A stretch of DNA of 64,000 nt, taken from the NCBI GenBank assembly GCA_021845665.1, contig JAJZVO010000019.1:919-64918 (forward strand), in the 5' to 3' direction. Below, piece after piece: positions 5,300 to 54,320 of the stretch; within the stretch, counting starts at the first letter, position 1, and each line of letters starts with the position of its first letter. A model generated the notes under the pieces. That model was not told the origin of the DNA. It was given only the letters and a program-made list of their open reading frames with translations, and ran no database searches. Origin of the DNA: Bacteroidota bacterium. Its GTDB lineage: Bacteria > Bacteroidota > Ignavibacteria > Kryptoniales > JAKASW01. Position numbers and translations under genes: made by a program.

Positions 5300-5506
5300 T
5301 TATGGCCCGGTCCTCTTTCTTGTTTGAGATTTCTTCACTAATCGGTCATGAGGCTGATTTTCAAGTGCGTAAACTTTGATAAGGAGGAAGAACATGACTA
5401 TAAGGAGAACGACGATAAGAGGGAGAGCGAAGTTGAATCTATCTGTGAAAGAAGGGATTGCCGAAGCAAGCGAATCGGCAGCTGCATCGAGGACTAATGC
5501 AAACAT
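5300..5506 (-). CDS. 68-aa single-TM protein coupled to cytochrome b
   Basis: ATG overlaps cytochrome b TGA; hydrophobic stretch FALPLIVVLLIVMFFLLIKV. Confidence 0.55.
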   Translation of the reverse strand: MFALVLDAAADSLASAIPSFTDRFNFALPLIVVLLIVMFFLLIKVYALENQPHDRLVKKSQTRKRTGP

Positions 5507-6552
5507 CAGTGAACTTCCGTTGTGATGTACGCCATTACGGTCATGGTGACGAGGTAAACAATAATCGCAACGCCGAACAGAGTAAAGAACGTACTCTTTT
5601 CCCCGTTCGAGGCTTTCCGATCTAAGAACGGTACGAGCATCCAGATGATTGCGCCGAGAGTTATGCCACCGAGGCCGATTACATCCGGGAAGGTCCGCAG
5701 CGTTTGGAACACGAATAGGAAATACCATTCCGGTTTAATACCGGCTGGCGCCGGGAGGACAGGGTTGACCTTTGCGGCGAGTCCTTCGGGGAAGAGCGCG
5801 ACGAATGAAATAAGCACGGCAAGCGCACCGGACCAAACCGCCGCCTGGCGCATCATGAAGTTCGGGAAGAGTTTGGTTTCGTCTCTCGTCGACCGCTGAG
5901 ACAATGGAGTGCTCAGGCCGAGCACTTGGCTGAGGAAAACATGAATCGCTATGATGGTGAGCCACAATATCGGCAGCACGATTGTATGGAGCGTGAACAT
6001 TCTTGTGAGCGTAGCGGCGCCGACGTCAGCACCGCCGACCATGAGCCTGGAAATGAAATGGCCGACGAAGGGTACGTAGAGCGGCATGCTGGTCCCGATT
6101 TTCGTGGCGAAATACGACAGAGTGGTCCATGGGAGAAGATATCCGGTAAACGCCGACGTCAAAATCAGCGCAAGTATTATGACTCCGAGCACCCACATTA
6201 TTTCCCTTGGCTTCCTATACGCCTTCGTGAAGTAAGTCGAGAACATGTGGACCAGGACGACGGCGATCAGGAAATTAGCGCCCCAGAAATGGATAGATCT
6301 GATGAGCCATCCGTAATGGACTTTTTCCATGATGTAACGGACCGACTCATTGGCTTTCACCGGCGTGGGCGAATAGTAAAACGCCAGCATGATGCCGGTA
6401 ATAATTTGTATTGTCAGGACAAAGAGGGCGAGCCCGCCGAAGTAATACCAGAATGAGTGTTTATGCTGCGGGATTTTTCTTTGTGCAACCCAGGCTTGGA
6501 CAGGAGAAAAATCGATCCGGTCTTTTAGAAAATCGGCAGCTCGGCTCGTCAT
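5506..6552 (-). CDS. petB: Cytochrome b of Rieske/cytochrome b complex 1 (b6 + subunit IV fused)
   Basis: GWLIRSIHFWGAN..VH, GYLLPW, RMFTLH-x14-H heme ligands, IKPEWYFL. Confidence 0.93.
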   Translation of the reverse strand: MTSRAADFLKDRIDFSPVQAWVAQRKIPQHKHSFWYYFGGLALFVLTIQIITGIMLAFYYSPTPVKANESVRYIMEKVHYGWLIRSIHFWGANFLIAVVLVHMFSTYFTKAYRKPREIMWVLGVIILALILTSAFTGYLLPWTTLSYFATKIGTSMPLYVPFVGHFISRLMVGGADVGAATLTRMFTLHTIVLPILWLTIIAIHVFLSQVLGLSTPLSQRSTRDETKLFPNFMMRQAAVWSGALAVLISFVALFPEGLAAKVNPVLPAPAGIKPEWYFLFVFQTLRTFPDVIGLGGITLGAIIWMLVPFLDRKASNGEKSTFFTLFGVAIIVYLVTMTVMAYITTEVH

Positions 6553-6557
6553 CCGGA

Positions 6558-6998
6558 TCAAGCCAGTTGTTTCTTTACCGTCACGTAGATCTTATTCCCC
6601 TCGATGTCGACGTAATACACCGGAAGCGGTCTGGTGGCGGGCCCCTTCAGCACTTTGCCGTCGATATTGAAAATACTCCCGTGGCATTCACAAATGAAAT
6701 TGTCATCCTTCGACTGGAAGGCCACGGTGCATCCCATGTGTGTACACTTGGCGGAGAGAGAGGTATACTTTCCGTCGGGAAGGTGAACCAGCACCGCAGG
6801 TTTGTCCAGGAATTTGAAAAACTTTGCCGTGTTGAGTCCCATCTTATCCAGGGTGGTGACGAAAACCTTGTCTACTTCACCCAAAGCAACTGCGGGAGGT
6901 GTAAAGAATCGAAGGACAGGATAAACGATATAAGCAGCGATCACTGCTACTCCCGACGTGAGGACGCGATTCAAAAATTGTCTTCTGGATGTCGCCAT
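6558..6998 (-). CDS. petC: Rieske 2Fe-2S protein of complex 1
   Basis: Tat signal SRRQFL, CTHMGC and CECHGS boxes, GPATRPL. Confidence 0.93.
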   Translation of the reverse strand: MATSRRQFLNRVLTSGVAVIAAYIVYPVLRFFTPPAVALGEVDKVFVTTLDKMGLNTAKFFKFLDKPAVLVHLPDGKYTSLSAKCTHMGCTVAFQSKDDNFICECHGSIFNIDGKVLKGPATRPLPVYYVDIEGNKIYVTVKKQLA

Positions 6999-40939: not shown

Positions 40940-41422
40940 CTACTTCTTCGGAGCCTTTGTCCGCAAGAACTCCAGTATAGCACGTGCTTGCTCCTTCGTC
41001 ACGCCCGGAACGATCATCGGGACATGATATTTATCGAGGAGCGCTTTCGCCACCGGGTCTTTTGATTCCATCACTGTGCTGTTCAGTATCATGTTCATTA
41101 TGAATTCGGGTGAATAATCCCGAGTAGAGTATTCGAGTGGCGGACCGACCAACCTGGAATCAAGCTGATGACAGGACATACATTTTTCTTCGAATTGTGA
41201 CTTCCCCTTTTCAGCAAGCTTCTTGTCGATTGGACCAAGGGTCACAGATTTTATCGGACCTATTCCCTTGTCCTGTTTGGTATCAACCGCCGTCTTGTCA
41301 GCTCCTTTCGCTTTTTGAGAATTTTGGGCTGCGGCAAGATTTGAGGGATTAGTACAGACAGCAACTCCTATCGACAGAACAAACGCAAGAAGCGCGAGTC
41401 GTTTCATCTGGTCATTCTCCAA
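40940..41422 (-). CDS. Periplasmic monoheme cytochrome c
   Basis: Signal peptide, CMSCH, VGPPL, FIMNMILN, axial Met in VPM. Confidence 0.9.
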   Translation of the reverse strand: MENDQMKRLALLAFVLSIGVAVCTNPSNLAAAQNSQKAKGADKTAVDTKQDKGIGPIKSVTLGPIDKKLAEKGKSQFEEKCMSCHQLDSRLVGPPLEYSTRDYSPEFIMNMILNSTVMESKDPVAKALLDKYHVPMIVPGVTKEQARAILEFLRTKAPKK

Positions 41423-41706: not shown

Positions 41707-43083
41707 TTAGAGAACGATCCAGGTCGAGATATACAGCGTATTGTTGTTGGCGGCGCTTCTCCCAAACCCGTCATAATTCGTGCTGCCGCCGTTGAACTTG
41801 GTGTATAGCACATACTGAATGCCGAGTCTCGTATTTTGCCACGGGTTGAAATCGAATTCTGCCATGACGCCGCTGCTGTTCGGGCTGCCGGTAAGGCTCC
41901 CGTCCACGGAGGAGGGTGCATAAAGGCTTCCGTCAGCTGAACCATACGTGTTGAAGTACTGCGCCATAACCGCAAGACCGTTACAGAACATGTAGGAACC
42001 GTCAATCCGGAATGTGTTCAGGTTGTTAGTCGGGTTAGCAGATCCTCCCGCGGCGAAAGTGGCCTTCAGATCCTGATTCTCATGAATCCATGTGGAGTGG
42101 AACACAAGTTCATTTTGGCCGATTGAATGCTCGACCTGGAAATCGAAGGCGATATCAGTGTAATTATCCGTCGCGCCACTTATTCCACTCGGATAGATGT
42201 TCGTCGACAATCCGTACGTTCCAATTTCAACGTATGTATTAGAGAATTGTCTTTGAAGAGCGACTCTCCAATAGGGTGTTACTCCGCTTATCGTAAAGTT
42301 TGCGTGAGAATCCGGAGGAAAAGGGCCGCCCTGGGGTGTAGATTTGTATCCGGAGAGGTCGGCATAAATAAGATTATCGTACATAGCGAAAGCGCCGAGT
42401 CCGGCGACGTTTCCTCCGAAGGCGCCGTCGACGAGTGTGCTTGCGCCGGGAGTGGGTGCGCTGCTCGAGGAAGCGTACGGATAACCCCAGGCAGGAGTGC
42501 TGTTCCAGAGATCCTCGACTGTCGGATTATTGTTGAGCGTGAGTCCATATGTGATCGGATGATCTGCGATGAGTCCCTGGTTCGAGTACCGGATATCGGT
42601 ATTGTCCCAGCCGAAGGCTGCGCCTTGGTCGTCATAAGTAATCTGGGTGAAGGCTCCGATGTGAGGAGTGATTTCACCGCCGAGGAAGAGGCTGAGCTGC
42701 TGAGGGAATTCCATATTGCCGGTCTTCGTTCCTGGAACCGGTTTCGCGACATCATTGTAAGATGCCTGCACCATTGCTGAAAGAAGGAAGTTCCTGAGAA
42801 GTTTCAGTGCTCCCTGGTCCCCCTTTGCCTTCGCATCTATAGTCTGGCGTCCCACCATCGTATAGCCGTTCAGTTTGAAACTTCTTCCGAAGGGGGTCAG
42901 TTCCGGGAAGGAATAGTGGCATGAACTGCAGGCAAGCCCGGTCTGGCGGGCATAACTTGGTATGGCGTACGCGTTTCCACTCAATACAACGAGAGTCAAG
43001 GCCCCCACTATCAGAAGGGCCGTTTTTCTTCCGAAAAATTGAAACATTGAATTGGTCCTTGAATTTGTTGAAACACTAATCAT
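41707..43083 (-). CDS. cyc2: Cyc2-type outer-membrane monoheme cytochrome c / beta-barrel porin fusion (putative Fe(II) oxidase)
   Basis: Signal peptide ending AYA, then IPSYARQTGLACSSCH...PELTPFGRSFKLNGY; FPQQLSLFLGGEITPHIG, NNNPTVEDLWNSTPAW, PWQNTRLGIQYVLYTKFNG; beta-strand-rich body; strong AGGAGG SD. Confidence 0.9.
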   Translation of the reverse strand: MISVSTNSRTNSMFQFFGRKTALLIVGALTLVVLSGNAYAIPSYARQTGLACSSCHYSFPELTPFGRSFKLNGYTMVGRQTIDAKAKGDQGALKLLRNFLLSAMVQASYNDVAKPVPGTKTGNMEFPQQLSLFLGGEITPHIGAFTQITYDDQGAAFGWDNTDIRYSNQGLIADHPITYGLTLNNNPTVEDLWNSTPAWGYPYASSSSAPTPGASTLVDGAFGGNVAGLGAFAMYDNLIYADLSGYKSTPQGGPFPPDSHANFTISGVTPYWRVALQRQFSNTYVEIGTYGLSTNIYPSGISGATDNYTDIAFDFQVEHSIGQNELVFHSTWIHENQDLKATFAAGGSANPTNNLNTFRIDGSYMFCNGLAVMAQYFNTYGSADGSLYAPSSVDGSLTGSPNSSGVMAEFDFNPWQNTRLGIQYVLYTKFNGGSTNYDGFGRSAANNNTLYISTWIVL

Positions 43084-43229
43084 TGGTTCTCCTCCTGCTT
43101 AGTTTTATCTCATCAAGATTAACGTCAGCATTCGTCGACATCATGAAGACATGGTTGGAATTAGCAAATTACCAGCTCAAAGAAAGGCCCGCATGATTCC
43201 ATGTCACCTTCCGATGCCGCCCTAAGATA

Positions 43230-43245
43230 ATCAATAGCTGTGCCA
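43230..43245 (-). promoter_or_regulatory. Sigma54-like -24/-12 motif upstream of cyc2 (TGGCAC-N5-TTGAT)
   Basis: Correct spacing but -12 GC replaced by GA. Confidence 0.3.
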
Positions 43246-43270
43246 TAGAAAGCACCCAAACTGATATGAA

Positions 43271-43299
43271 ATAGTACAAAATCCTCACGGGAGAGTCAA
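43271..43299 (-). promoter_or_regulatory. Putative sigma70 promoter for cyc2 (TTGACT-N17-TACTAT)
   Basis: Near-consensus hexamers with 17-nt spacer; implies ~180-nt leader. Confidence 0.55.
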
Positions 43300-44100
43300 G
43301 ACTTCGGGGCAAACGCGACTAATTGCCCCTACTGAATGTCTAAGACAATTACACACTTGGGAGATGCGAATAACGAATGACAGAAAGGGAAAGAACCGTT
43401 CAGTTGTGCTCCCTCAAGAAAGAGGAGCTATGGAATTGGGATTTACGCATCGGATCATTCGAATGGGCTGTGGTTCAGTTCCATTCATCCGGAAGGACTT
43501 GGTACTCGCTTTTGCTTCAAACAGAAGTATCTCATCTGAAAGCTACACAATATTGGGTCGATTAGAGATGTTTTGGATTATTTTGACACAGCAAGGTGTT
43601 GTTTAATTCGCCCTAAATGATTAAATAGGGATGTGAGGAGTGAAACCGTCTGAGAGGAACCCAGGGTAGAAGAAAGATAGGCTCGGAGCAAGAGAGGTGT
43701 CATGAAGTGCCTCTTTATGAAAACGACGCGAGCTTGCTTGCACTACCAACATTGAATGAAACGGTCCCCCCCGCGTGCTTCATCACGACCGACAGTGTAA
43801 GTTCTGTTTGAACTTCTTGTCCTTTTAAATCCCAATCAAAGATCCTGAAGAAGCGCTGACGAGTTGCCAGAGCCATTGAAATGTTTGATTTGCACATAGA
43901 AGCAGAACAAAGGTACTGGAAAGCCTGCGCACCTTCGTCCTCTACCCGACGAGCCCCGCATTTAGCGATCTCAAGAGATAGAGTACACACCGGATCATTA
44001 ACATAGATAACGAACCAACCTGCAACCGCCATGATTGCTGACGAGATGCACGAATCGGGCGGTAGCAATTGAAGTCTGAAACAAATCCTAAGGAAGGGTT

Positions 44101-44637
44101 ATGGAAAACTCAGAAGAACCCAAAATCCCGGAACAGCACGACCCATCCCGCAGGTCTTTTCTCAAGATCGGGACGGGGGTCATCGGAGGATTTGCGACGC
44201 TCATCCTCGCAGTTCCATTTTTGGACGCTCTCTTAAGTCAATCTTTGCGAATAAAGATTGGAAAGTTTGTAAATGCAGGTCCCGTTTCTTCAATCTCCGG
44301 CAATAATCCTCAGAAGGTCTTCTTCGACGAGCGCGACCGGGATGCATATATTGAAGAGGTAGAAAGGCGGGACGTATGGGCACTCAAGCACGGCGAAAAC
44401 AACGTTACCGTGTTCTCACCGATTTGTCCCCATCTGGGATGCCGCTACAACTGGCACCCCGAACGCGATGAATTCATCTGCCCTTGTCACGGCAGTGTTT
44501 TCGCCAAGGACGGAAAGGTTCTCCACGGTCCGGCCCCACGCTCACTGGACACTCTCCCGACAAAAATTGAGAACGGCGAATTGTACGTTAAGTGGGAACG
44601 TTTCAAGCTCGGTGTTCCTAAGAAGATAGTGGTATAG
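44101..44637 (+). CDS. Rieske 2Fe-2S protein of complex 2 (QcrA-like)
   Basis: Tat SRRSFLK, CPHLGC and CPCHGS boxes, GPAPRSLD. Confidence 0.93.
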   Translation: MENSEEPKIPEQHDPSRRSFLKIGTGVIGGFATLILAVPFLDALLSQSLRIKIGKFVNAGPVSSISGNNPQKVFFDERDRDAYIEEVERRDVWALKHGENNVTVFSPICPHLGCRYNWHPERDEFICPCHGSVFAKDGKVLHGPAPRSLDTLPTKIENGELYVKWERFKLGVPKKIVV

Positions 44638-44651
44638 GAGGAGAACTGCAG

Positions 44652-46682
44652 ATGCTATCAAATATTCAAGAGTGGATCAACGATCGGTGGCCTGTGAAAG
44701 AAGTGTGGAAGGCCGCCACCGAGGAGGAAATTCCCGGGGGTTCCAGCTACGCATATGTTTTTGGAAGTGCCACACTATTTCTGTTCTTGCTCCAGATTGT
44801 CACAGGCGTCTGGCAAATTTTTTACTACGTTCCAACGACTGACCATGCATATCAGTCGCTTTCGTATCTGAGGATATCAGTCCCGTTCGGGTGGCTGATA
44901 CACGGTCTTCACTACTGGGGAGCAACGGTGATGGTTATTCTCGTTGCCGTTCATCTTTCGCGAGTGTACATCTGGGGAGGTTACAAGAAGCCAAGAGAGC
45001 TCACCTGGCTCCTCGGTGTGTTTCTGTTGCTCTTCACGATGGCGATGAGCTTCACGGGAGCAGCCCTTCCCTGGGATGAGACTGGCTACTGGGCCTCAGA
45101 GGTAGGTACGAGCATAGCAGGTACGACTCCGATGCTCGGGAATATAGCCGAGAGCCTTTTACGCGGCGGTGCGAAAATGGGACAGCTTACATTGTCGCGA
45201 TTCTTCATCCTGCACGTCGCAATAATCCCGGCGATTCTTCTCGCATTCATTGCGCTTCATCTCGTAGCCTTTCGAAAGAAAGGGAGCGTGGGACCATGGG
45301 AGGAGTCGAAACGGAAGCGCAGCGGATCGTTCTGGCCCGATCAGGTCTTCAAGGACGCCTTCTTTTTCACGATAATACTGCTTGCTTTGATCGCGCTGGC
45401 GGCATTCCTTGCACCGCCATTCTCCGGACCAGCCGACCCGATCGACACGACTTTCCAGCCCAAGCCTGAGTGGAACTTCCTGTTTCTCTACCAGGCGATA
45501 AAGGCATTCCAAGGTCCGTGGGAGCCTGTCGGCACAATTGGTATCCCGACGGTTCTTTTCGCGTTCCTCTTCTTGCTTCCGTTCTTCGACAAGAATCCCG
45601 AGCGCAGTCCCCGAAAACGACCTATCGCAATGTTGATTGGATTGGTCATCGCCGGCGGAATAACGACGCTGACCATATCCGGGTACTATAGCCACCCGGG
45701 TGCTAAGCAGAATGGCGCGACGGTAGCGGCAGCGTCATCAAAGCCTGGAAAGACAGCAAGCGTCGAGACCGTCGTAGCGAAACAGCCCGAACTTCCCCCG
45801 CTCTCTCCAGCTCAAAAGGCAGGAGCTGAAAAGGGAGCAAAAGTTTTCGCGACGATGGGATGCACAGCCTGCCACACCGTTAACGGTGTCGGCGGACATG
45901 TAGGGCCCGATCTATCCGGAGAAGGTCTGAAAGCCCACTCGATTGCATGGCTGATGGCCCAGATTCGCAATCCGAAATCTCATGATCCGAAGACGGTTAT
46001 GCCGCCATTCACGATGCTGAGTAACGTCCAGGTCGGCGAACTCGTGGATTATTTGACCAGCCTTCGTAGCAAGCCAGTACCGGCAGCCGCTCCTTCCACG
46101 TCCGTTGCTGCTAAGACACCACAGGCACGGCCCGCAAACGTCAGGGTCGTTCAGCTGCCGTCAGATGTAGGCGAGCCTGGGCTTGCGGCCAGCATGATCG
46201 GCAACGTCGAGCATGGTAAGAAATTGTTCGATGCGAACTGCGCAAGCTGTCACGGTGTTGAAGGAAAAGGTGGAGTACCCAATCCCGGTTCTTATCTAGG
46301 AACGGTCCCCGCACTTAATCCTGTGAGACCTGAGTTGTTCAGTAAAGATCCGGCAGTATTCGCGGACAATCTGGACCGTTTTATCGAAAATGGCGCGGCA
46401 CCCCCTGGACCGAGTCCGCAGAAGGCTATGGCCCCCATGAGCATGGTGGGCTACGGCAAGACTCAGTCTCTTACCCAGCAGGAGATATCGAACATAATTG
46501 CATACGTAATGAGTCTTAACGGCGTCAACAGGGCCAAGATTCTGCACCCCGGGATTGCCCCGAAAACATTTTTCTTTCTGGCTTTAGGAATATTCATTGT
46601 ACTTTGGCTTATCCTCGGCACCTTGCGATTAGTTTCCTCGCAAGGAAAGACCGATACGTCGGCCGACTCCGAGAAGAAATAG
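44652..46682 (+). CDS. Cytochrome b + subunit IV + diheme cytochrome c fusion
   Basis: GWLIHGLHYWGA..VH, RFFILH-x14-H, PKPEWNFL, CTACH and CASCH, Ala/Pro/Lys linkers, C-terminal TM anchor. Confidence 0.92.
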   Translation: MLSNIQEWINDRWPVKEVWKAATEEEIPGGSSYAYVFGSATLFLFLLQIVTGVWQIFYYVPTTDHAYQSLSYLRISVPFGWLIHGLHYWGATVMVILVAVHLSRVYIWGGYKKPRELTWLLGVFLLLFTMAMSFTGAALPWDETGYWASEVGTSIAGTTPMLGNIAESLLRGGAKMGQLTLSRFFILHVAIIPAILLAFIALHLVAFRKKGSVGPWEESKRKRSGSFWPDQVFKDAFFFTIILLALIALAAFLAPPFSGPADPIDTTFQPKPEWNFLFLYQAIKAFQGPWEPVGTIGIPTVLFAFLFLLPFFDKNPERSPRKRPIAMLIGLVIAGGITTLTISGYYSHPGAKQNGATVAAASSKPGKTASVETVVAKQPELPPLSPAQKAGAEKGAKVFATMGCTACHTVNGVGGHVGPDLSGEGLKAHSIAWLMAQIRNPKSHDPKTVMPPFTMLSNVQVGELVDYLTSLRSKPVPAAAPSTSVAAKTPQARPANVRVVQLPSDVGEPGLAASMIGNVEHGKKLFDANCASCHGVEGKGGVPNPGSYLGTVPALNPVRPELFSKDPAVFADNLDRFIENGAAPPGPSPQKAMAPMSMVGYGKTQSLTQQEISNIIAYVMSLNGVNRAKILHPGIAPKTFFFLALGIFIVLWLILGTLRLVSSQGKTDTSADSEKK

Positions 46683-46909: not shown

Positions 46910-48298
46910 CTACTTCATGTAGGTAGCGGTGCCGTTCTGCTCTTCCGTCTGATAAACATTCATAATGTATTGCGCCACGGCTTTTACCTGGGCCTCATTT
47001 AAACCTTGCTTCGGCATGGGCGGATATCCTTGCAAGACTTGCCGCGGGTTCATTATGAAGTTCTCCAGGTCATCCATTCTTCCTTCGTAATTGCCAAGCA
47101 CCATATTGTAGGCAGGTCCCACAAGCCTGCGATCGAATCTGTGGCAGGCGCTGCAAGTTTGCTTGTAAATATCTTCGCCATTGATCTTGGCCGTTTGTAC
47201 TTCAGGGAGCTCTGAGAGCATTTTGTCGTAATTATTGGCCATGAGCTGGTAGTGCGCCCGGTTAGATTGGCTGAATGAGACGCCCTTGGCTGTCATCCAG
47301 ACCCCGACCATTACGACAACACCGATAAAGGCATAGCTGCCGAGTTGGACTTTTCTTTGCTTCAACATTTGGAAGAAGAAATGCACGAGTATGAACACGA
47401 TCAAGAGGCCCAGCCCGGCAAGTCCGAAGACGGCGCCGTCTTCGGCAGCCGAAGGGACGAAGGTGAGATCGATAAAGATGATTAGAGGTTGGACGATTGC
47501 GAAAAGGAGCCCTGCATTCGTCGCAAACCTCTTTACAAACGAAGAGTATGCCTCGTCATTTGAGACGCCCAGTCCGCCGTCCCAAATATAGAAGAAGAAA
47601 AGGATGGCGGCACTCTCGATCACAACGGCGGCAGTGACGAAATGGATGAAACTCCAGATCGTTGTCCAGGAAAAGAGTACGGCAAACGCGCCGGCGTCTT
47701 TCATCCAGTCCTGGCTGTCCAGAGCCAGGTTAGAACCGCCCATGAACGCCCACATTCCGATCCAGAGCATAACAGTACCAAACAATCCCGCCCTTCGCCG
47801 CGTCTGGTGAGCGGAGATTTCCATAGCGTCGACATCAACGAGGCTCGCGTCGCCGATCTCAGATTTCTGGGACGACGTCAGTTTCTTATAAGATTCAATG
47901 AATCCTTCGAGCCTGAAACTGTACCTATAGGCAATCAGGAACATGAAGCCGATGATGATGAGAATTGCCGAACCCGTTATGAAGTTCGTGACATCTGCCT
48001 TTGTATTATAAAGGAGCTCGGCGTAGATAAGAATTATAGTCACGATCGGAAGTCCCGCCAAAGCCGCGACGGCACCCTTACCCGGCAATGCCACATCGAT
48101 AAGATTCCTGGCAAATCGGCGGTATATCTTATTCCCTTTTTTCAATCCTTTGCGATTGAAGTAAAGCGACAAGGTAGAGCCGGTCGCCGCTATCGCCATG
48201 TATGTGACAAGCATGGTCGAGACAAAGGACAACAAATAGTAAAGAAGCGTAAGGCGTTCACCCGATTCGGGATTAACAAGGTTGTTTAGGAAATGCAT
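46910..48298 (-). CDS. Polytopic membrane protein with C-terminal monoheme cytochrome c domain
   Basis: ~9-10 hydrophobic segments then CSACH...VGPAY...YPPMP; starts 4 nt after heme O synthase stop. Confidence 0.85.
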   Translation of the reverse strand: MHFLNNLVNPESGERLTLLYYLLSFVSTMLVTYMAIAATGSTLSLYFNRKGLKKGNKIYRRFARNLIDVALPGKGAVAALAGLPIVTIILIYAELLYNTKADVTNFITGSAILIIIGFMFLIAYRYSFRLEGFIESYKKLTSSQKSEIGDASLVDVDAMEISAHQTRRRAGLFGTVMLWIGMWAFMGGSNLALDSQDWMKDAGAFAVLFSWTTIWSFIHFVTAAVVIESAAILFFFYIWDGGLGVSNDEAYSSFVKRFATNAGLLFAIVQPLIIFIDLTFVPSAAEDGAVFGLAGLGLLIVFILVHFFFQMLKQRKVQLGSYAFIGVVVMVGVWMTAKGVSFSQSNRAHYQLMANNYDKMLSELPEVQTAKINGEDIYKQTCSACHRFDRRLVGPAYNMVLGNYEGRMDDLENFIMNPRQVLQGYPPMPKQGLNEAQVKAVAQYIMNVYQTEEQNGTATYMK

Positions 48299-48302
48299 CT
48301 GG

Positions 48303-49310
48303 CTAAAGCCTCCATGGTGAGATCAATTTGAAAAGGATGTCCACTAGGACCAAAACAGTAACGGCCAACACATAAATATTTATTTTCATGAAAGCGGATT
48401 TATACGTTCGTTTGTCGCCGAAGTGTTTCACTACCGGCCAAGCCCCCATGCTCAGCCAGGCGCCGAGGACGAGAAGTAGTATTCCCGTTACCTCGCCCTC
48501 GACTACACCCGTCGTTATAAAAAGGACAGAAATGGCAACAAGAGCCAGCATCCATGCATAAGTGAAAACGGCAAATTTCTTTTCGGACAGGTGACTTCGC
48601 ATCGTTGGAAAACCGGCTCTCTCGTAATCACTGCTGTATATATCCATCAAGAGCCAGAAATGCGGGATCTGCCAGACGAAGAAGAACGAAGACACGACCA
48701 GGAGCTTCGGATCCACCAGGCTTCCGCCGGCAGCCGCCCAGCCCGCCATCACCGGTAGAGAGCCGACGAAAGAGCCGGGCACTACCGCGTAGGCCGTTTT
48801 CTTCTTGAGAGGTGTGTAAATGGCATTGTACCAAAACATTGCAAGCAATGAAAGCACCAGTGCCGGGAGGTTCCCCCAGGTGAGAGTCACAGCGGAGCCG
48901 GCAATGACAAGACCGATAAGCATGAGAAGTGCCGCGCGGGGAGAGACAGTTCCGGAAGGGAGCGGACGCCTTTGCGTACGGTGCATAAGAGCGTCGCTAT
49001 ATCGCTCCTGGTAATGATTAAGTACTGCCGATCCGCAGGCAACGAGGAAAATTCCTAATGAAGACATGACCATGCCGAAGGAGATTTCCCCGGATGCAAG
49101 GACGTAACCGAAAAGAGCCGACATCCCGACGAAGAATGTAATCTTTATCTTGACAAGCTCCGCGACGGCATTTGCGATTTCCTTCAGGTGGGCAAGACGT
49201 CCCACCTCAGGTAAGCTGAGGACGGCCGTGCCCTCCCTGCTGATTCCGGGCGAGTGTAAACCATCCACGGTTCTCATCGGCCGATTTTCATTTTGGTCAG
49301 TTCTGCTCAT
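48303..49310 (-). CDS. ctaB: Protoheme IX farnesyltransferase (heme O synthase, CtaB/CyoE)
   Basis: LNHYQE...DALMHRT.RRPLPSG, YNAIYTPLKK, GWAAA, FVWQIPHFW. Confidence 0.93.
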   Translation of the reverse strand: MSRTDQNENRPMRTVDGLHSPGISREGTAVLSLPEVGRLAHLKEIANAVAELVKIKITFFVGMSALFGYVLASGEISFGMVMSSLGIFLVACGSAVLNHYQERYSDALMHRTQRRPLPSGTVSPRAALLMLIGLVIAGSAVTLTWGNLPALVLSLLAMFWYNAIYTPLKKKTAYAVVPGSFVGSLPVMAGWAAAGGSLVDPKLLVVSSFFFVWQIPHFWLLMDIYSSDYERAGFPTMRSHLSEKKFAVFTYAWMLALVAISVLFITTGVVEGEVTGILLLVLGAWLSMGAWPVVKHFGDKRTYKSAFMKINIYVLAVTVLVLVDILFKLISPWRL

Positions 49311-49378: not shown

Positions 49379-50035
49379 TCAAAAATAGATCGTTGAATCA
49401 CCGAGCGCCACTTTCGGTTCGGCAGTGCTGCTCGATTTGATCCAACTGTCGAAGGTCGTATCAGGCAAGACGATCATTTTCGTTTTCATCAGTGAGTGGT
49501 CAAGCCCGCAGTATTGAGTGCAGACCACGTCAAAGACGCCGAGATGCTCCGGGTACACCACCATATGTCGAATCCTGTCGGGCAGCGCGTCCTGCTTTTC
49601 CCTGAACGCGGGGAGATAGAAGCTGTGGATCACGTCAAGTGATGTGATGAGGCAATCGATCGGCCTTCCCTTAGGAACATACAGGGTATCGCATCGCTTC
49701 CCGTTCATATATTCAAACGAAAAACTCCATTGTCGGGCGAAGACCTTGACCGGCATGGCATTCTTCGGGACGATGCGTATCTGCAGATATGCTTCCCATC
49801 CCACATAGAACATCGCGAGAACCAGAACTGTCGGAATAACCGTCCAGAAAATCTCTAGGGGGACGTTTCCCGGAATACTTGTGGCCCGTGGGTTCCGCTT
49901 ATGATTGTACTTAAAGACAAAGAACACCATTGTTGCGACAACTATCGTGAACAGGATCAGGCTGCAGATTACAATGAATCTCATCACGTCATCTACGGCC
50001 TGTGCGTGATTCAGTGCGTACGGCAATAATCTCAT
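49379..50035 (-). CDS. coxB: Cytochrome c oxidase subunit II (CuA, no fused cytochrome c domain)
   Basis: LEIFWTVIP, ARQWSFSFEY, DVIHSFY, CTQYCGLDHSLM. Confidence 0.93.
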   Translation of the reverse strand: MRLLPYALNHAQAVDDVMRFIVICSLILFTIVVATMVFFVFKYNHKRNPRATSIPGNVPLEIFWTVIPTVLVLAMFYVGWEAYLQIRIVPKNAMPVKVFARQWSFSFEYMNGKRCDTLYVPKGRPIDCLITSLDVIHSFYLPAFREKQDALPDRIRHMVVYPEHLGVFDVVCTQYCGLDHSLMKTKMIVLPDTTFDSWIKSSSTAEPKVALGDSTIYF

Positions 50036-50045
50036 TTTTTGCGCC

Positions 50046-50360
50046 CTATCTCCTGAAATAGACATCGGCAAATGTCAGGAGGAAAATCACCGAAAGTACT
50101 CCACCCGCGATTGCCACGAAGATTTTGAAAATTTTGTCCTCATACTTCACGTGCATGAAGACATTCACTACGAGCGAGGATTTAACGAGTGCTATGAGAA
50201 GCGCTATCACCAGAGTGAAAGCAGCGAGGTTAATTCCTGCGACGACCGCCGTGATCGCGGTAAGCGCCATCAAGGCCAGCCAAATGAGGACATATATTCC
50301 GTAGCTGGTAGGCGCGCCTTTGTGTTCCGTCAAAGTTTGCTGTTCCATCATTCTCTCCAT
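50046..50360 (-). CDS. Cytochrome c oxidase subunit IV (CtaF/CyoD-like)
   Basis: IALVKSSLVVNVFMHVKYE; TGATG coupling to coxC. Confidence 0.88.
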   Translation of the reverse strand: MERMMEQQTLTEHKGAPTSYGIYVLIWLALMALTAITAVVAGINLAAFTLVIALLIALVKSSLVVNVFMHVKYEDKIFKIFVAIAGGVLSVIFLLTFADVYFRR

Positions 50361-51004
50361 CAGTTAACCAGGTAAAATAGCGGGAACAAGAATATCCAAA
50401 TAATGTCGATCAGGTGCCAATAGAGCCCTGCTGCCTCCAGCCTCACTGAATCTTCCTGCGTGATTTTACCCTTGATTATGAAAATCAACATGACGGTAAG
50501 TAGCCCGCATCCGACCAGCACATGCAGACCGTGAAGGCCGGTCATCAGGTAATACATCGCAAAGAATAGTTCAAAGCCGCGAGGGTGTTTGAACAACATC
50601 GGAGACCCCGGGTAGATCCCTTCGTGGATTTCAGTTGACCACTCGACATATTTTATGACCAGGAATCCGAGTCCGAGGGCAATGGTTGAAGAAAGGAAAG
50701 TCACCGAGAGCCACTTCTTTCCTCTTTCCAGGGCAGTAATCGAAAGCGCCATGGTCAGACTGCTTGTAAGAAGGACCATGGTGTTGACCGTGCCGAACAA
50801 CGTATGCGTGTACATAGCGGCTTCGTGGAACTCCTTCGTATAGAAGTATCTGTACGCCGAGTACAGGAGGAACATGCCGCTGAACAAAAGAAGCTCCGTC
50901 ATGAGGAAAAGCCACATCCCCATCTTTATTCCATGAACGTCCTTCTTCGGGTGACCGGCGTGTCCAGTATGTTTTGCGGATTCAGGCAAGGAAATTTCAC
51001 TCAA
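50360..51004 (-). CDS. coxC: Cytochrome c oxidase subunit III
   Basis: GMWLFLMTE, NTMVLLTSS, TGLHGLHV, GLYWHLIDIIWIFLFPL. Confidence 0.93.
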   Translation of the reverse strand: MSEISLPESAKHTGHAGHPKKDVHGIKMGMWLFLMTELLLFSGMFLLYSAYRYFYTKEFHEAAMYTHTLFGTVNTMVLLTSSLTMALSITALERGKKWLSVTFLSSTIALGLGFLVIKYVEWSTEIHEGIYPGSPMLFKHPRGFELFFAMYYLMTGLHGLHVLVGCGLLTVMLIFIIKGKITQEDSVRLEAAGLYWHLIDIIWIFLFPLFYLVN

Positions 51005-52638
51005 CTTGTGAACGCCTCCTCGTGGTAATATGGCTCGTGGATGACTACTGGTTCTTCTTCAAAATTCTCATGTATCGGCGGAGAAGCCGTCTTCCATTCG
51101 AGGGTGGTGCCTCCCCAGGGGTTCGGGCCCACGCGCGGTCCTTTTATGGCACCGTGAATTAGATTGACAAACATGACTATCAATCCTGCAACCAGGATCC
51201 ATGACCCCGCTATAGAGATATGCTGAAGGGTTTCAAATTGCGGCAGGTAAGTAAAATAGCGTCGCGGCATCCCTTCATATCCCATGATGAACATCGGGAA
51301 ATAGAGGAGGTTGAATCCGATGAACATCACAAGTAAATCCCAGCTTGCGATCTTTTTGTCGTACATCCTGCCGAACATTTTCGGGAGCCAGTAGTGCAAT
51401 GCTCCGAAGAATATGAAGACGCCGCCCCCGAAGATTATGTAATGGAAATGGGCCACCACAAAATAAGTTGCGGTGAGGTGGACATCTGTCGCCAGTGATC
51501 CCAGCACAAGGCCGCTCAAACCGCCGATTGAAAACAAGACCATGAAGGCCATCACGAAAAGGAAAGGTGGCTGAGGGTCGATGGACCCTTTATACATCGA
51601 CGCAACCCAGTTGAACACTTTTATTCCGCTCGGAATGGCAACGATGAAAGTCAGGAATGAAAAGACCATATCCGCCTGCTGCGACATTCCGGCAACGAAC
51701 ATATGGTGTCCCCATACCAGATATCCGATGAAGGCAATGGCGAGACTGGACATCGCTATGGCTTTGTATCCAAAGATCGTCCTTCGGGTAAACGTGGCGA
51801 TTATTTCTGAGACTATGCCCATTGGCGGAAGTATCATTATGTATACGGCCGGATGCGAATAGATCCAGAACAAATGCTGGTACAAGACGGGATCACCACC
51901 GGCCGCCGCGTTGAATATACCGATACCGAATACCCTGGAAATAATTATCAGGAGGAGGGTGATCGCAAGGACAGGTGTAGCGATGATTTGCACCCAGGAC
52001 GTAGCGTAAAGGGCCCAGACAAAAAGCGGCATTTTGAACCACGTCATACCGGGAGCCCTTAAGCGGTGAATGGTTGTGAGGAAATTGATCCCGGTGAGAA
52101 TTGACGAGAACCCGACGATGAAGACACCGAAGACTGCCACGGTCACACCTGTTGTCGTCCTAAGGCTATAAGGTACATAGAAAGTCCAACCCGTGTCCGG
52201 AAGACCGTTGACGAAAAGAGCCGTCAAAATCACCGCAGATCCTATAACGTACAGGTAAAAGGAAAAGAGGTTCAATCTTGGAAAGGCAACATCCTTTGCG
52301 CCGATCTGAAGCGGTAGGAAGAAATTGCCGAGCGTCACGGGGATTCCGGGAATGACGAACAGGAAAATCATTATGACGCCGTGGAGCGTGAAGAGGGCAT
52401 TATAGACTTCCGGGCCAAAAAGCTTGCCGCCGGGTGAGATCATTTCCAAACGGAGCAGGATGCCTAACAAGACGCCGACGGAAAAAAAGCTGAACAGCAT
52501 TACTGTGTACATTATGCCTATTCGCTTATGATCAGTTGAAAGGAGCCAGGCAGCAAGCCCCTTGTGCTTCCCGATGTTTTCCAGGTAACTTCCCTCCACG
52601 ACAGAAATGTCCTGCGGGGGCAATGCAATGTCAGCCAT
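51001..52638 (-). CDS. coxA: Heme-copper oxidase subunit I, A2 type
   Basis: STDHKRIG, TLHGVIM, DVAFPRLN (D-channel), YSHPAVY (A2 YS motif), WGHHMF, PSGIK (K-channel), AHFHY. Confidence 0.95.
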   Translation of the reverse strand: MADIALPPQDISVVEGSYLENIGKHKGLAAWLLSTDHKRIGIMYTVMLFSFFSVGVLLGILLRLEMISPGGKLFGPEVYNALFTLHGVIMIFLFVIPGIPVTLGNFFLPLQIGAKDVAFPRLNLFSFYLYVIGSAVILTALFVNGLPDTGWTFYVPYSLRTTTGVTVAVFGVFIVGFSSILTGINFLTTIHRLRAPGMTWFKMPLFVWALYATSWVQIIATPVLAITLLLIIISRVFGIGIFNAAAGGDPVLYQHLFWIYSHPAVYIMILPPMGIVSEIIATFTRRTIFGYKAIAMSSLAIAFIGYLVWGHHMFVAGMSQQADMVFSFLTFIVAIPSGIKVFNWVASMYKGSIDPQPPFLFVMAFMVLFSIGGLSGLVLGSLATDVHLTATYFVVAHFHYIIFGGGVFIFFGALHYWLPKMFGRMYDKKIASWDLLVMFIGFNLLYFPMFIMGYEGMPRRYFTYLPQFETLQHISIAGSWILVAGLIVMFVNLIHGAIKGPRVGPNPWGGTTLEWKTASPPIHENFEEEPVVIHEPYYHEEAFTS

Positions 52639-52641
52639 ATC

Positions 52642-53451
52642 TCAGTTCCCTCCCTTGGCCTTTGCTTTCTTGAGTCTCTTTGTAGTCATAAGGAATAAGA
52701 TGAATGCGAGCATGAAGATAGTTGTTCCCCAGCCAACGACCGAAATGGCATCGAAAGAATAACCGGTCCCGGCGGCATCGTAGCTAAAACACAACTTCAA
52801 GACGTTTCCTATTATCGGAGCGAACGTGTTGTTTGCCGCTTCCATAATCGCCATCTGCACGTCGATCGGCGTGAAAGTCATCCCATAGATATACCTGGCT
52901 ATCTTCCCTTCCTTGCTTACGAAGATAAGAGCGGTGGGATGCGTGAACATGTCGTGCTTGTCCCGCATGAAATAGAAACCGACTTCGTTGGTAAGCTTGT
53001 GGATGGTGACGCTGTCGCCAGTCAGGAATCTCCATGCATTGTCCGGTATCGGGCGTCTCGCCATTTTCACGTACTGTTGTTTTTTTTCGAGTGCACGCGC
53101 AGGAGTGTCGTTCGGGTCGAAACTTATCGTCGCTATCCTGTAGTCCTTTCCAGGCATTTCTTTCATTTTTTCGACGACCTGCTGGATACCGCCGAACACC
53201 CTATCGCAGATGCCCGGGCATGTGTAATACCCTAGGTCGATAATCAGCGGTTTCCCATCAGATATTTGCGCCAGAGTTATCGGTTTGCCGTATTCATCCT
53301 TGAAAGTCAAATTCATGTCGATCGTCTTCCCGAGCTGCTGGACTATTCCCACATTAGGATGCGACGCATCTTCGGCGAACAGGGCTTTCACCGGAAAGAT
53401 AAGCGAGCTCAGCGCTGCAGCTATATAGAAAGATTTGAAAATCTTAGTCAT
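52642..53451 (-). CDS. SCO1/SenC copper chaperone
   Basis: YYTCPGIC CxxxC, WRFLTGD, FTHP, C-terminal TM. Confidence 0.9.
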   Translation of the reverse strand: MTKIFKSFYIAAALSSLIFPVKALFAEDASHPNVGIVQQLGKTIDMNLTFKDEYGKPITLAQISDGKPLIIDLGYYTCPGICDRVFGGIQQVVEKMKEMPGKDYRIATISFDPNDTPARALEKKQQYVKMARRPIPDNAWRFLTGDSVTIHKLTNEVGFYFMRDKHDMFTHPTALIFVSKEGKIARYIYGMTFTPIDVQMAIMEAANNTFAPIIGNVLKLCFSYDAAGTGYSFDAISVVGWGTTIFMLAFILFLMTTKRLKKAKAKGGN

Positions 53452-53609: not shown

Positions 53610-54320
53610 CTAATTGCCTGCCATCTCGGCAAGCGTCTCGATATCGGAGTCAGTTTCCTTTGGGAAACCTTTGAAGCTTCGTATATAGCTTATGATGGCA
53701 AGCCGGTCATTGACGGATATTGAGCTGAAGGGAGGCATCGGACTTCCCGGGATGCCGTCTGTCAAGGTCTTATACATTCCGGAGGCCATGCGCCCGTTAA
53801 TCCAACCCTTTGCCGAGTGGAAGTTGCGAGGTTTTGGTTTGAATGCCGCGGCGGCGGGGCCGTCGCCTTCACCGTTTGCACCGTGGCAGGCAACGCAATC
53901 GTCTATGAAAAGACTCTTGCCTTTTGCGATCATTGCGGCAGGAGGGGAGATAAGATCTGCAAATTTAGAATCGGCCGCCGGCAAGGAGGATACCTTGGAC
54001 TTTTCGTGTGAGGCCATTTCCTTCGTCTCCTCAGCATGTGACCCGGAAGTCGAGGGTTTCATCAAAGAAGCTTCGGGGGAAGATTCGGACAATTCATTCG
54101 CTTCCGTCGGAGTCTCTCCAGGGATTGTGGTGGAAGAGGTTTGGGTCGTCGTGGTGACTTGAGATTTGCCGTTCTTGCCGTTTTGCCGCGAAGAATAGAG
54201 AAAGATCACGGCCGCTGCGATTCCGGCGAAGTACAAATAATACAGAGGGCGCCACCATCTCCGCTTCAAAAAGAACGTGGCACTTTTTTCCAGGTTCTCA
54301 TTCTGTAGATTCGGTTCCAT
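53610..54320 (-). CDS. Membrane-anchored monoheme cytochrome c with long Ser/Thr/Glu-rich linker
   Basis: N-terminal TM, low-complexity linker, CVACHG..G.GDGPAA..PKPRNF, GSPMPPF. Confidence 0.9.
   Translation of the reverse strand: MEPNLQNENLEKSATFFLKRRWWRPLYYLYFAGIAAAVIFLYSSRQNGKNGKSQVTTTTQTSSTTIPGETPTEANELSESSPEASLMKPSTSGSHAEETKEMASHEKSKVSSLPAADSKFADLISPPAAMIAKGKSLFIDDCVACHGANGEGDGPAAAAFKPKPRNFHSAKGWINGRMASGMYKTLTDGIPGSPMPPFSSISVNDRLAIISYIRSFKGFPKETDSDIETLAEMAGN

Follow-up and report, generated by a model that had tools for sequence, protein, structure and literature searches.

A Cyc2-type gene in a Bacteroidota contig

We analysed a stretch of 64,000 nucleotides of DNA (hereafter the window) from a metagenome-assembled genome (MAG) of a Bacteroidota bacterium (assembly GCA_021845665.1, contig JAJZVO010000019.1, positions 919 to 64,918 of the forward strand). 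The analysis centres on one open reading frame (ORF), which had been predicted to encode Cyc2, an iron oxidase, of a kind closely resembling that of Acidithiobacillus. This ORF lies on the minus strand at 41707..43083 and, read from the ATG given in the ORF listing of the window, specifies 458 amino acids (aa). Based on sequence homology, motifs, an AlphaFold2 model and a tree, we annotate it as a Cyc2-family fused monoheme cytochrome c and 16-strand outer-membrane porin. At the level of sequence and predicted structure, it is confirmed as a real gene for such a fused cytochrome-porin, in family membership as well as in architecture.

The gene has two in-frame ATG codons, at 43083 (458 aa) and at 43047 (446 aa). 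An AGGAGG Shine-Dalgarno sequence precedes the first of them, and both this sequence and the ATG are kept in a relative with 89% identity. Public gene calls begin at the second ATG, and 9 independent contigs, the longest of 214 kb, carry the resulting 446-aa form unchanged. An exact look-up of the 458-aa product returned no database record; gene callers take the second ATG. The mature protein is the same from either start.

This ambiguous start is the only feature that could speak for a chance reading frame or a pseudogene. Such an origin is effectively refuted by the identical product on nine contigs, the conserved Shine-Dalgarno sequence and start, the confident structural model described below and the number of homologs. 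These amount to more than 7,400 matches, and a phmmer search against 1.84 billion representatives returned 3,607 clusters at E <= 1e-3, of which 1,498 passed E <= 1e-10 and 457 passed E <= 1e-30.

The N-terminus reads MISVSTNSRTNSMFQFFGRKTALLIVGALTLVVLSGNAYA up to the predicted cleavage site of the signal peptide and IPSYARQTGLACSSCHYSFPELTPFGRSFKLNGY after it. The n-region is basic (R19 and K20, in 458-aa numbering), and the hydrophobic core spans residues 22-35, with Kyte-Doolittle values of up to 2.8. The signal peptide ends in SGNAYA and is followed by IPSYARQTG, with an AxA-type site between AYA and IP. In the AlphaFold2 model, residues 2-23 of the 446-aa form are a lone helix, followed by a low-confidence linker. 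Taken together, these are the predicted signal peptide expected of a Cyc2 protein. In terms of length, the product (446-458 aa) is above the minimum of 365-375 aa for the family. By sequence, it shows significant homology to the biochemically verified proteins Acidithiobacillus Cyc2 and Cyc2 PV-1.

Heme head and predicted barrel

The head of the protein, AIPSYARQTGLACSSCHYSFPELTPFGRSFKLNGY, contains a single CXXCH motif (CSSCH) at residue 52 of the 458-aa form. The same holds for the close relatives, where all 142 of 142 have exactly one CXXCH. No other Cyc2-like head was found in any frame of the window. The head quoted in the original prediction, PSYARQTGLACSSCH to PELTPFGRSFKLNGY, and the barrel strings FPQQLSLFLGGEITPHIG, NNNPTVEDLWNSTPAW and PWQNTRLGIQYVLYTKFNG are all present in the ORF product. 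Its formula for the head placed the motif directly after the signal peptide, as is found here, but gave four residues between CXXCH and PEL where there are three (YSF). The proline of the PxL motif is the fourth residue after the His of CSSCH. This spacer has 3 residues in the window protein and in Acidithiobacillus, and 4 in Cluster 1 of the family. On the other side of the heme motif, AIPSYARQT is followed by a 3-residue gap before CXXCH, and the same gap is found in all reference groups.

Keffer et al. 2021 described the signature [A]xPxFAR[Q/K][T/Y] upstream of CXXCH, with PXFAR[QK][TY] as the literal screen. The window protein agrees with the signature except for a change of F to Y, and the literal expression does not match it. 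This Y variant is present in 43 of 142 close relatives, 13 of 58 proteins of an intermediate tier and 2 of 61 in the set on the Acidithiobacillus side. Given these alignments, we treat it as natural variation at an aromatic position and keep the protein in the family, regarding the regular expression as too strict. A different change is seen in the Acidiphilium cryptum JF-5 homolog (L032 4890-6257), which has FAAQT for FARQT and has lost the otherwise invariant Arg of the signature.

In the family-wide alignment, no Met or His other than the His of CXXCH is conserved across the Cyc2 superfamily, and for this reason the sixth heme ligand cannot be named from sequence. Lys58 (446-aa numbering; the K of F-K in GRxFK) is nearly invariant across the family.

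The AlphaFold2 model, built with a 94-sequence alignment, has a mean pLDDT (predicted local distance difference test) of 86.9 and a pTM (predicted template modelling score) of 0.84. Its elements are the signal helix, a short head of helices surrounding the heme site, and some 16 long beta-strands with short hairpins, so that the 16-strand barrel, for which the original prediction had proposed a check by AlphaFold, was recovered together with its helical head. In a Foldseek search against the PDB, all matches were 16-strand porins (OmpT, OmpU, OmpF, OmpC, OprP, OprO). The top query-normalised TM-scores, 0.48-0.50, belong to OprP (2O4V) and OprO (4RJW/4RJX), the templates that were reported for Cyc2 PV-1 (Keffer et al. 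2021). The model shows a head of about 35 residues, which would hold one c-type heme at CSSCH, with the other ~380 residues forming a predicted 16-strand beta-barrel.

The likeness of this barrel to the general and anion-selective porins OmpF, OmpU, OprP and OprO could also suit an ordinary solute porin, with an N-terminal heme domain for periplasmic housekeeping (heme or iron handling, peroxide scavenging) and no extracellular electron transfer. The undetectable conserved distal Met/His ligand would be in line with this, and so would the outcome of the Pfam and NCBIfam searches, where the ORF found no family. These libraries appear to be without a Cyc2 model, hence the missing match is not evidence against membership. 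A sequence search of the PDB found no solved relative. We regard the solute porin as very unlikely, since proven Fe(II) oxidases of different phyla share the head motif, its spacing and the barrel segments, a gene for a periplasmic c-type cytochrome consistently accompanies the Cyc2 gene, and the fusion of cytochrome and porin is the defining feature of Cyc2 (Keffer et al. 2021).

Relation to Acidithiobacillus Cyc2

To retrieve reference genes, a rusticyanin query (155/155 residues identical to PDB 1CUR) was used to fetch rus-operon loci from reference genomes. Six rus loci had an upstream gene bearing the head PSFARQTGW[S/T]CA[A/T]CH; the rusticyanin of A. ferruginosus CF3 is 100% identical to PDB 1CUR. 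The window protein aligns by tblastn with the Cyc2 genes of the rus loci at 31-33% identity over nearly the full length, with E values of 1e-61 to 8e-66. Two more distant MAG genes among these loci gave E values of 2e-49 to 5e-53. In a MAFFT global alignment, identity to three named Acidithiobacillus Cyc2 proteins is 35-37%. By BLASTP, the match to P0146, a “cytochrome C [A. ferrooxidans]”, has 35.9% identity over 490 columns and 254 bits; this protein is a second A. ferrooxidans copy, itself 59% identical to the rus-operon Cyc2. Overall, full-length alignment to Acidithiobacillus Cyc2 yields 32-36% identity and 214-254 bits, a sequence likeness that is far beyond chance.

Both sides have a signal peptide, a single CXXCH and the head PS[F/Y]ARQTG-xx-CxxCH-xxx-PxLTP-GR-FKL-G[YF] with the same spacing. 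They also share the barrel blocks FPQQxSLF..GE.TPHIG, NNxPT..DLWN.TP.W and PW.NTR...YV.Y.KFNG. The Acidithiobacillus segments cited in the original prediction proved to be real: the rus-operon Cyc2 of A. ferruginosus CF3 contains NNTPTAMDLWNTTPDW and PWWNTRFSLRYVVYNKFNG without a mismatch, while FPQQVSLFYAGEITPHIG is exact in A. ferrianus and has one I/V difference in A. ferruginosus CF3. By contrast, the window protein is about 30-50 residues shorter than Acidithiobacillus Cyc2, without several loop insertions, and its signature has Y where Acidithiobacillus Cyc2 has F.

A reciprocal search with Acidithiobacillus Cyc2 finds Acidithiobacillus (59-100% identity), Acidiferrobacter (50-58%) and a few gammaproteobacterial MAGs (36-45%). 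Then it drops sharply to a broad tier of <=231 bits, where sampled members are 39-48% identical to the window protein. This tier includes the Kryptoniota protein P0047, also present in the window protein's own match list.

Placement among the Cyc2 clusters

Three clusters of Cyc2 have been described (Keffer et al. 2021; McAllister et al. 2020). Cluster 1 comprises neutrophilic iron oxidizers and includes Cyc2 PV-1, Cluster 2 includes A. ferrooxidans Cyc2, and Cluster 3 includes Leptospirillum Cyt572, which according to the published phylogeny belongs to the same family. In Fig. S7D of Keffer et al. 2021, A. ferrooxidans Cyc2 has full-length identities of 27-30% with Ferrovum, Dechloromonas, Burkholderiales GJ-E10 and Thiomonas, of 18-23% with Cluster 1 and of 18.6% with Leptospirillum; we took the assignment of organisms to clusters from the text of that paper and not from the labels of the figure. 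The 33-36% identity of the window protein to the A. ferrooxidans type exceeds the published 27-30%.

As a Cluster 1 reference, Cyc2 PV-1 (P0262) was retrieved through the tandem mass spectrometry peptides of Keffer Table S1, with 9 of 12 peptides exact and the rest off by single-letter errors of the machine-read table. This protein of Mariprofundus ferrooxydans is a verified neutrophilic Fe(II) oxidase, and shares with the window protein the architecture, the head FARQTG-xx-CxxCH and the OprP/OprO-like fold. BLASTP aligns the two over the head and first strands only (66-71 bits), and their overall identity is 18.6%. Cyc2 PV-1 has one residue more between CXXCH and PxL, and a long branch with 100% support separates it from the window protein. 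Comparison of profiles reaches further: the window-type family matches Cluster 1 at 99.5% with E 2e-23 over 339 columns, well into the barrel. By this measure of sequence, the two form one superfamily.

The tree was built by neighbour-joining with 100 bootstraps, and Cluster 3 (Leptospirillum Cyt572, Geobacter) was left out. All non-Cluster-1 sequences, including the window protein, group together with 100% bootstrap. Within them, Acidithiobacillus, Acidiferrobacter and the gammaproteobacterial MAGs form a clade with 98% bootstrap that excludes the window protein, which sits in a subclade of its own with P0001, P0002, P0004, P0006 and P0007 (100% bootstrap). Judged against the Cluster 1 references, the sequence evidence supports a place in the Acidithiobacillus-containing group, published as Cluster 2, rather than in Cluster 1. 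The predicted Acidithiobacillus affinity stands in that broad sense. The claim of close resemblance does not, given the position outside the 98% clade, and by sequence the window protein is not a close relative of Acidithiobacillus Cyc2.

Distribution of homologs

The nearest proteins, with 50-89% full-length identity, come from MAGs of Bacteroidota, Ignavibacteriaceae, Kryptoniota, Zixibacteria and Calditrichia. They are unnamed or labelled only “cytochrome C”. These relatives have the same length of ~446 aa and a homologous partner cytochrome c, and nothing of substance differs. The window protein and its close relatives are already in public databases, where such homologs are common. Surveys based on FeGenie already report cyc2 in MAGs of Ignavibacteriales, Ignavibacteriaceae and Zixibacteria, without functional tests (PMC8478452, PMC13594681).

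Further full-length homologs, at 30-40% identity by tblastn, are located on plasmids or chromids of Caballeronia, Ralstonia solanacearum, Paraburkholderia, Acidiphilium cryptum JF-5, Methylocystis and Ideonella. Those of Burkholderiaceae, Acidiphilium and Methylocystis have the same head as the window protein, with full-length identities of 30-41%. In the tree alignment, Acidithiobacillus Cyc2 is less similar to the window protein than are the homologs of Caballeronia (41.5% identity), Ralstonia (41.0%) and Acidiphilium (37.2%). To our knowledge, Ralstonia, Caballeronia, Paraburkholderia, Methylocystis, Ideonella and Acidiphilium include no known Fe(II) oxidizers.

Genes around the Cyc2 gene

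A small monoheme cytochrome c (CMSCH, 155-160 aa, Pfam Cytochrom_C) is encoded on the minus strand at 40940..41422, 284 nt downstream of the Cyc2 gene. Its position is kept in the loci of relatives (L001-L004, L025-L027), and it is 37-46% identical to three cytochrome c matches in L029, a contig of a 56%-identical relative. The partner cytochromes are homologous within loci of the type found in the Fibrobacterota-Chlorobiota-Bacteroidota (FCB) group, without detectable relation to the proteobacterial partners. The N-terminus of the window cytochrome has a hydrophobic stretch ending in IGVAVC, followed by a low-complexity linker of Ala, Lys and Gln. The lipobox is not canonical; judging from this sequence, the protein may be lipid-anchored or membrane-tethered.

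The pairing of cyc2 with a cytochrome c gene recurs in an Ignavibacteriaceae contig (L028), twice in L029, in the stand-alone copy of A. ferrooxidans (L030), in Caballeronia and in Acidiphilium cryptum JF-5. In the last two the c-type cytochrome adjoins the homolog, with a high-potential iron-sulfur protein (HiPIP) upstream in Caballeronia. No linkage to oxidase or bc genes was seen for the Burkholderiaceae, Acidiphilium and Methylocystis homologs in the stretches examined. In L029 (8001-17341, on a 1.8-Mb contig), two tandem cyc2-cytochrome c modules lie about 4 kb apart. A tetrahaem CytoC_RC-type cytochrome separates the two, and the second is followed by Rieske and cytochrome b-c genes.

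On the other side, the Cyc2 gene and a divergent Rieske gene are separated by an unusually long intergenic region of about 1 kb (43084-44100). It contains a candidate sigma-70-like promoter on the minus strand, TTGACT-N17-TACTAT at 43271..43299, based on consensus match and conservation only. This site is ~190 nt upstream of the ATG at 43083 and sits in a block kept with the 89% relative. Other elements kept with this relative are a GGGGCAA...TTGCCCC inverted repeat before the promoter-like site and a conserved leader of ~190 nt. No Rfam family was found in this intergenic region, which may be a regulatory region or a structured leader. A scan of the Cyc2 locus for intrinsic terminators found none. 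An ORF of 117 aa in the same region (43715-44068, minus strand) was considered as a gene and rejected, having no family match, poor conservation and indels against the 89% relative. Some public assemblies call it as a gene (105-136 aa); from its sequence it is probably not coding.

The divergent gene, at 44101..44637 on the plus strand, encodes by family match a Rieske [2Fe-2S] subunit with a twin-arginine translocation (Tat) signal. It is followed at 44652..46682 (plus strand) by a cytochrome b, similar to b6/subunit IV, fused to a C-terminal dihaem cytochrome c with CXXCH at 404 and 530. Next, on the minus strand at 46910..48298, is a polytopic membrane protein of 462 aa with a C-terminal monoheme cytochrome c domain (CXXCH at residue 382), whose membrane part has no family match. 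It lies between the bc genes and a heme O synthase gene (CyoE/CtaB, UbiA family by family match; 48303..49310, minus strand), a position kept in L001-L004.

A heme-copper oxidase cluster occupies 49379..52638 of the minus strand and reads, 5' to 3', COX1 (51001-52638), COX3 (50360-51004), COX4_pro (50046-50360) and COX2 (49379-50071). COX2 retains the CuA ligands, DVIHSF...CTQYCGLDHSLM, and the enzyme is therefore a cytochrome c oxidase, accepting electrons from cytochrome c, and not a quinol oxidase. Within the CuA site CTQYCGLDHSLM, a Gln takes the Glu position of the canonical CxExCGxxHxxM. Upstream on the same strand are a SCO1/SenC copper chaperone (52642-53451) and, at the head of the cluster, a membrane-anchored monoheme cytochrome c of 236 aa (53610-54320), from whose end the cluster is transcribed. 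The order SCO1-COX1-COX3-COX4-COX2 is unusual for oxidase genes. Gene order across the neighbourhood is identical in the 89% relative.

A second Rieske/cytochrome b pair is present elsewhere in the window on the minus strand, with the Rieske gene at 6558-6998 (146 aa) and the cytochrome b gene at 5506-6561 (351 aa, no fused cytochrome c). Two different Rieske/cytochrome b complexes are thus encoded in this genome segment, with some 38 kb between them. A search for rRNA and tRNA genes found none in the window. Its proteins fall in 90% clusters with “Bacteroidetes/Bacteroidota bacterium” as the sole organism label, and placement at class level draws on the named relatives of the Cyc2 protein.

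In Acidithiobacillus too, a c-type cytochrome gene stands next to cyc2 and there is linkage to an aa3-type oxidase. The cyc2-cytochrome c pairing parallels the cyc2-cyc1-cox arrangement of the rus operon (PMC10654088), and the neighbourhood supports a respiratory role. The rus-operon set itself, cyc2-cyc1-cup-coxBACD-rus, is not matched, with no rusticyanin, no Cyc1-like partner and oxidase genes that are separate and reordered; this has no bearing on membership in the Cyc2 family.

Possible physiological role

Fe(II) oxidase activity has been reported for only three Cyc2 homologs, namely A. ferrooxidans Cyc2, Leptospirillum Cyt572 and Cyc2 PV-1 (Keffer et al. 2021). The original prediction had cautioned that function in this genome could only be an extrapolation, and rightly so. 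Taking the rus-operon chain and the neutrophilic Cyc2 model as analogies, we infer the following electron donor, partner proteins and direction of electron flow. The window protein would be exported by Sec, have its signal peptide cleaved between AYA and IP, and reach the outer membrane. Its heme, in or at the mouth of the barrel, would take single electrons from extracellular or pore-diffusing Fe(II). These would pass to a c-type cytochrome of the periplasm, for which the product of the gene 284 nt downstream is the likeliest candidate, and from there to the aa3-type cytochrome c oxidase with CuA, whose genes lie 6-11 kb away, with conservation of energy. The periplasmic cytochrome could also donate to the adjacent Rieske/cytochrome b-c complex working in reverse. 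In this way the organism would obtain energy, probably mixotrophically, from microaerobic Fe(II) oxidation. By analogy, then, we lean slightly towards Fe(II) oxidation as the physiological role of the protein.

Several observations weigh against this role. By sequence, the protein is equally or more similar to homologs in organisms that are not iron oxidizers, so likeness alone does not predict function; inference is limited because similar homologs occur in hosts not known to oxidize Fe(II). The nearest activity-tested homolog compared is only 33-36% identical, and the signature differs from the published one at its aromatic position. The partner cytochrome is smaller than that of Acidithiobacillus, of a different monoheme type and not Cyc1-like. 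No rusticyanin homolog is present in the window (best tblastn E 1.1), and no carbon-fixation genes are visible in it. Respiratory genes of the kind found here are needed by any aerobe, and their linkage is suggestive only. Furthermore, Keffer et al. 2021 caution that large parts of Clusters 2 and 3 are unverified, and a proteomic study assigned no Cyc2 peptides to the Ignavibacteriaceae MAG that it included (PMC13594681). The host, a Bacteroidota MAG, is probably not an acidophilic autotroph, unlike Acidithiobacillus.

Some of these points would equally suit a genuine Cyc2-family conduit with a role other than energy-conserving Fe(II) oxidation, which we consider a substantial possibility, though short of probable. 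It may export electrons to Fe(III), humics or other acceptors, use another extracellular donor, or serve in Fe(II) or redox detoxification or sensing. The equal or closer homologs in heterotrophs point this way, among them that of Acidiphilium cryptum JF-5, an Fe(III)-reducing acidophile. Ignavibacteria are Fe(III) reducers and heterotrophs, with MAGs that carry both oxidation and reduction markers (PMC8478452, PMC7914226, PMC13594681), and Keffer et al. 2021 state that Cyc2 may have additional functions. On the other hand, all biochemically tested members of the family oxidize Fe(II) (Keffer et al. 2021). As for electron export in particular, the CuA oxidase and periplasmic cytochromes nearby suit uptake towards O2, and no multiheme reductase-type cytochromes were found in the window.

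Implications for marker-gene surveys

Among marker genes for microbial Fe(II) oxidation, cyc2 is the one in widest use. With the placement described above, the Acidithiobacillus-containing group comes to include a very large clade from Bacteroidota and the rest of the FCB group, with 457 representative clusters similar over the full length. Throughout this clade the gene is consistently accompanied by one for a periplasmic cytochrome c, and in the window it stands within an island of genes for aerobic respiration. If the proteins of this clade oxidize Fe(II), common heterotrophs of sediment, subsurface and mine waste would contribute to iron cycling. The expression PXFAR[QK][TY], used for the reference Cyc2 phylogeny, rejects the window protein and ~30% of its close relatives; since it rejects the Y variant, a conservative F to Y change, published censuses may undercount the clade. 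Conversely, homologs just as similar in Ralstonia, Caballeronia and Acidiphilium call for caution against equating “cyc2 present” with “iron oxidizer”.

A broader proposal would join the Cyc2 protein, the partner cytochrome c, the Rieske/cytochrome b-dihaem c complex, the membrane cytochrome c and the CuA aa3 oxidase into a dedicated neutrophilic Fe(II)-oxidizing chain, in an uncultured and probably heterotrophic Ignavibacteria-like Bacteroidota. The FCB clade, with its ~30% of Y variants, would then stand for a mixotrophic iron-oxidizing guild that is widespread and undercounted. We put this forward as speculative, and doubt that it holds in full.

Observations on related loci

Complete rus-type loci, from cyc2 through rusticyanin, are found on plasmids of 51 and 62 kb in A. 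ferruginosus CF3 (pCF3-2) and A. ferrianus MG (p1MG). Besides the plasmid locus, A. ferrianus has a chromosomal copy of rusticyanin.

The plasmid CP084173.1, labelled A. ferrooxidans, and NC_009469.1 (pACRY03 of A. cryptum JF-5) gave identical match statistics of 35.8% identity, E 4e-66 and 236 bits. The “A. ferrooxidans” plasmid may carry an Acidiphilium-type homolog, via transfer or a mixed culture.

Lastly, the 89% relative (L003) is from assembly GCA_021794075.1, contig JAJYRM010000029.1. The prefix JAJYRM belongs to the same JAJY/JAKA series as several Acidithiobacillus-like MAGs, among them JAJYRD, JAJYHM and JAKAXM, which, by accession numbering only, hints at the same mine-related metagenome project.

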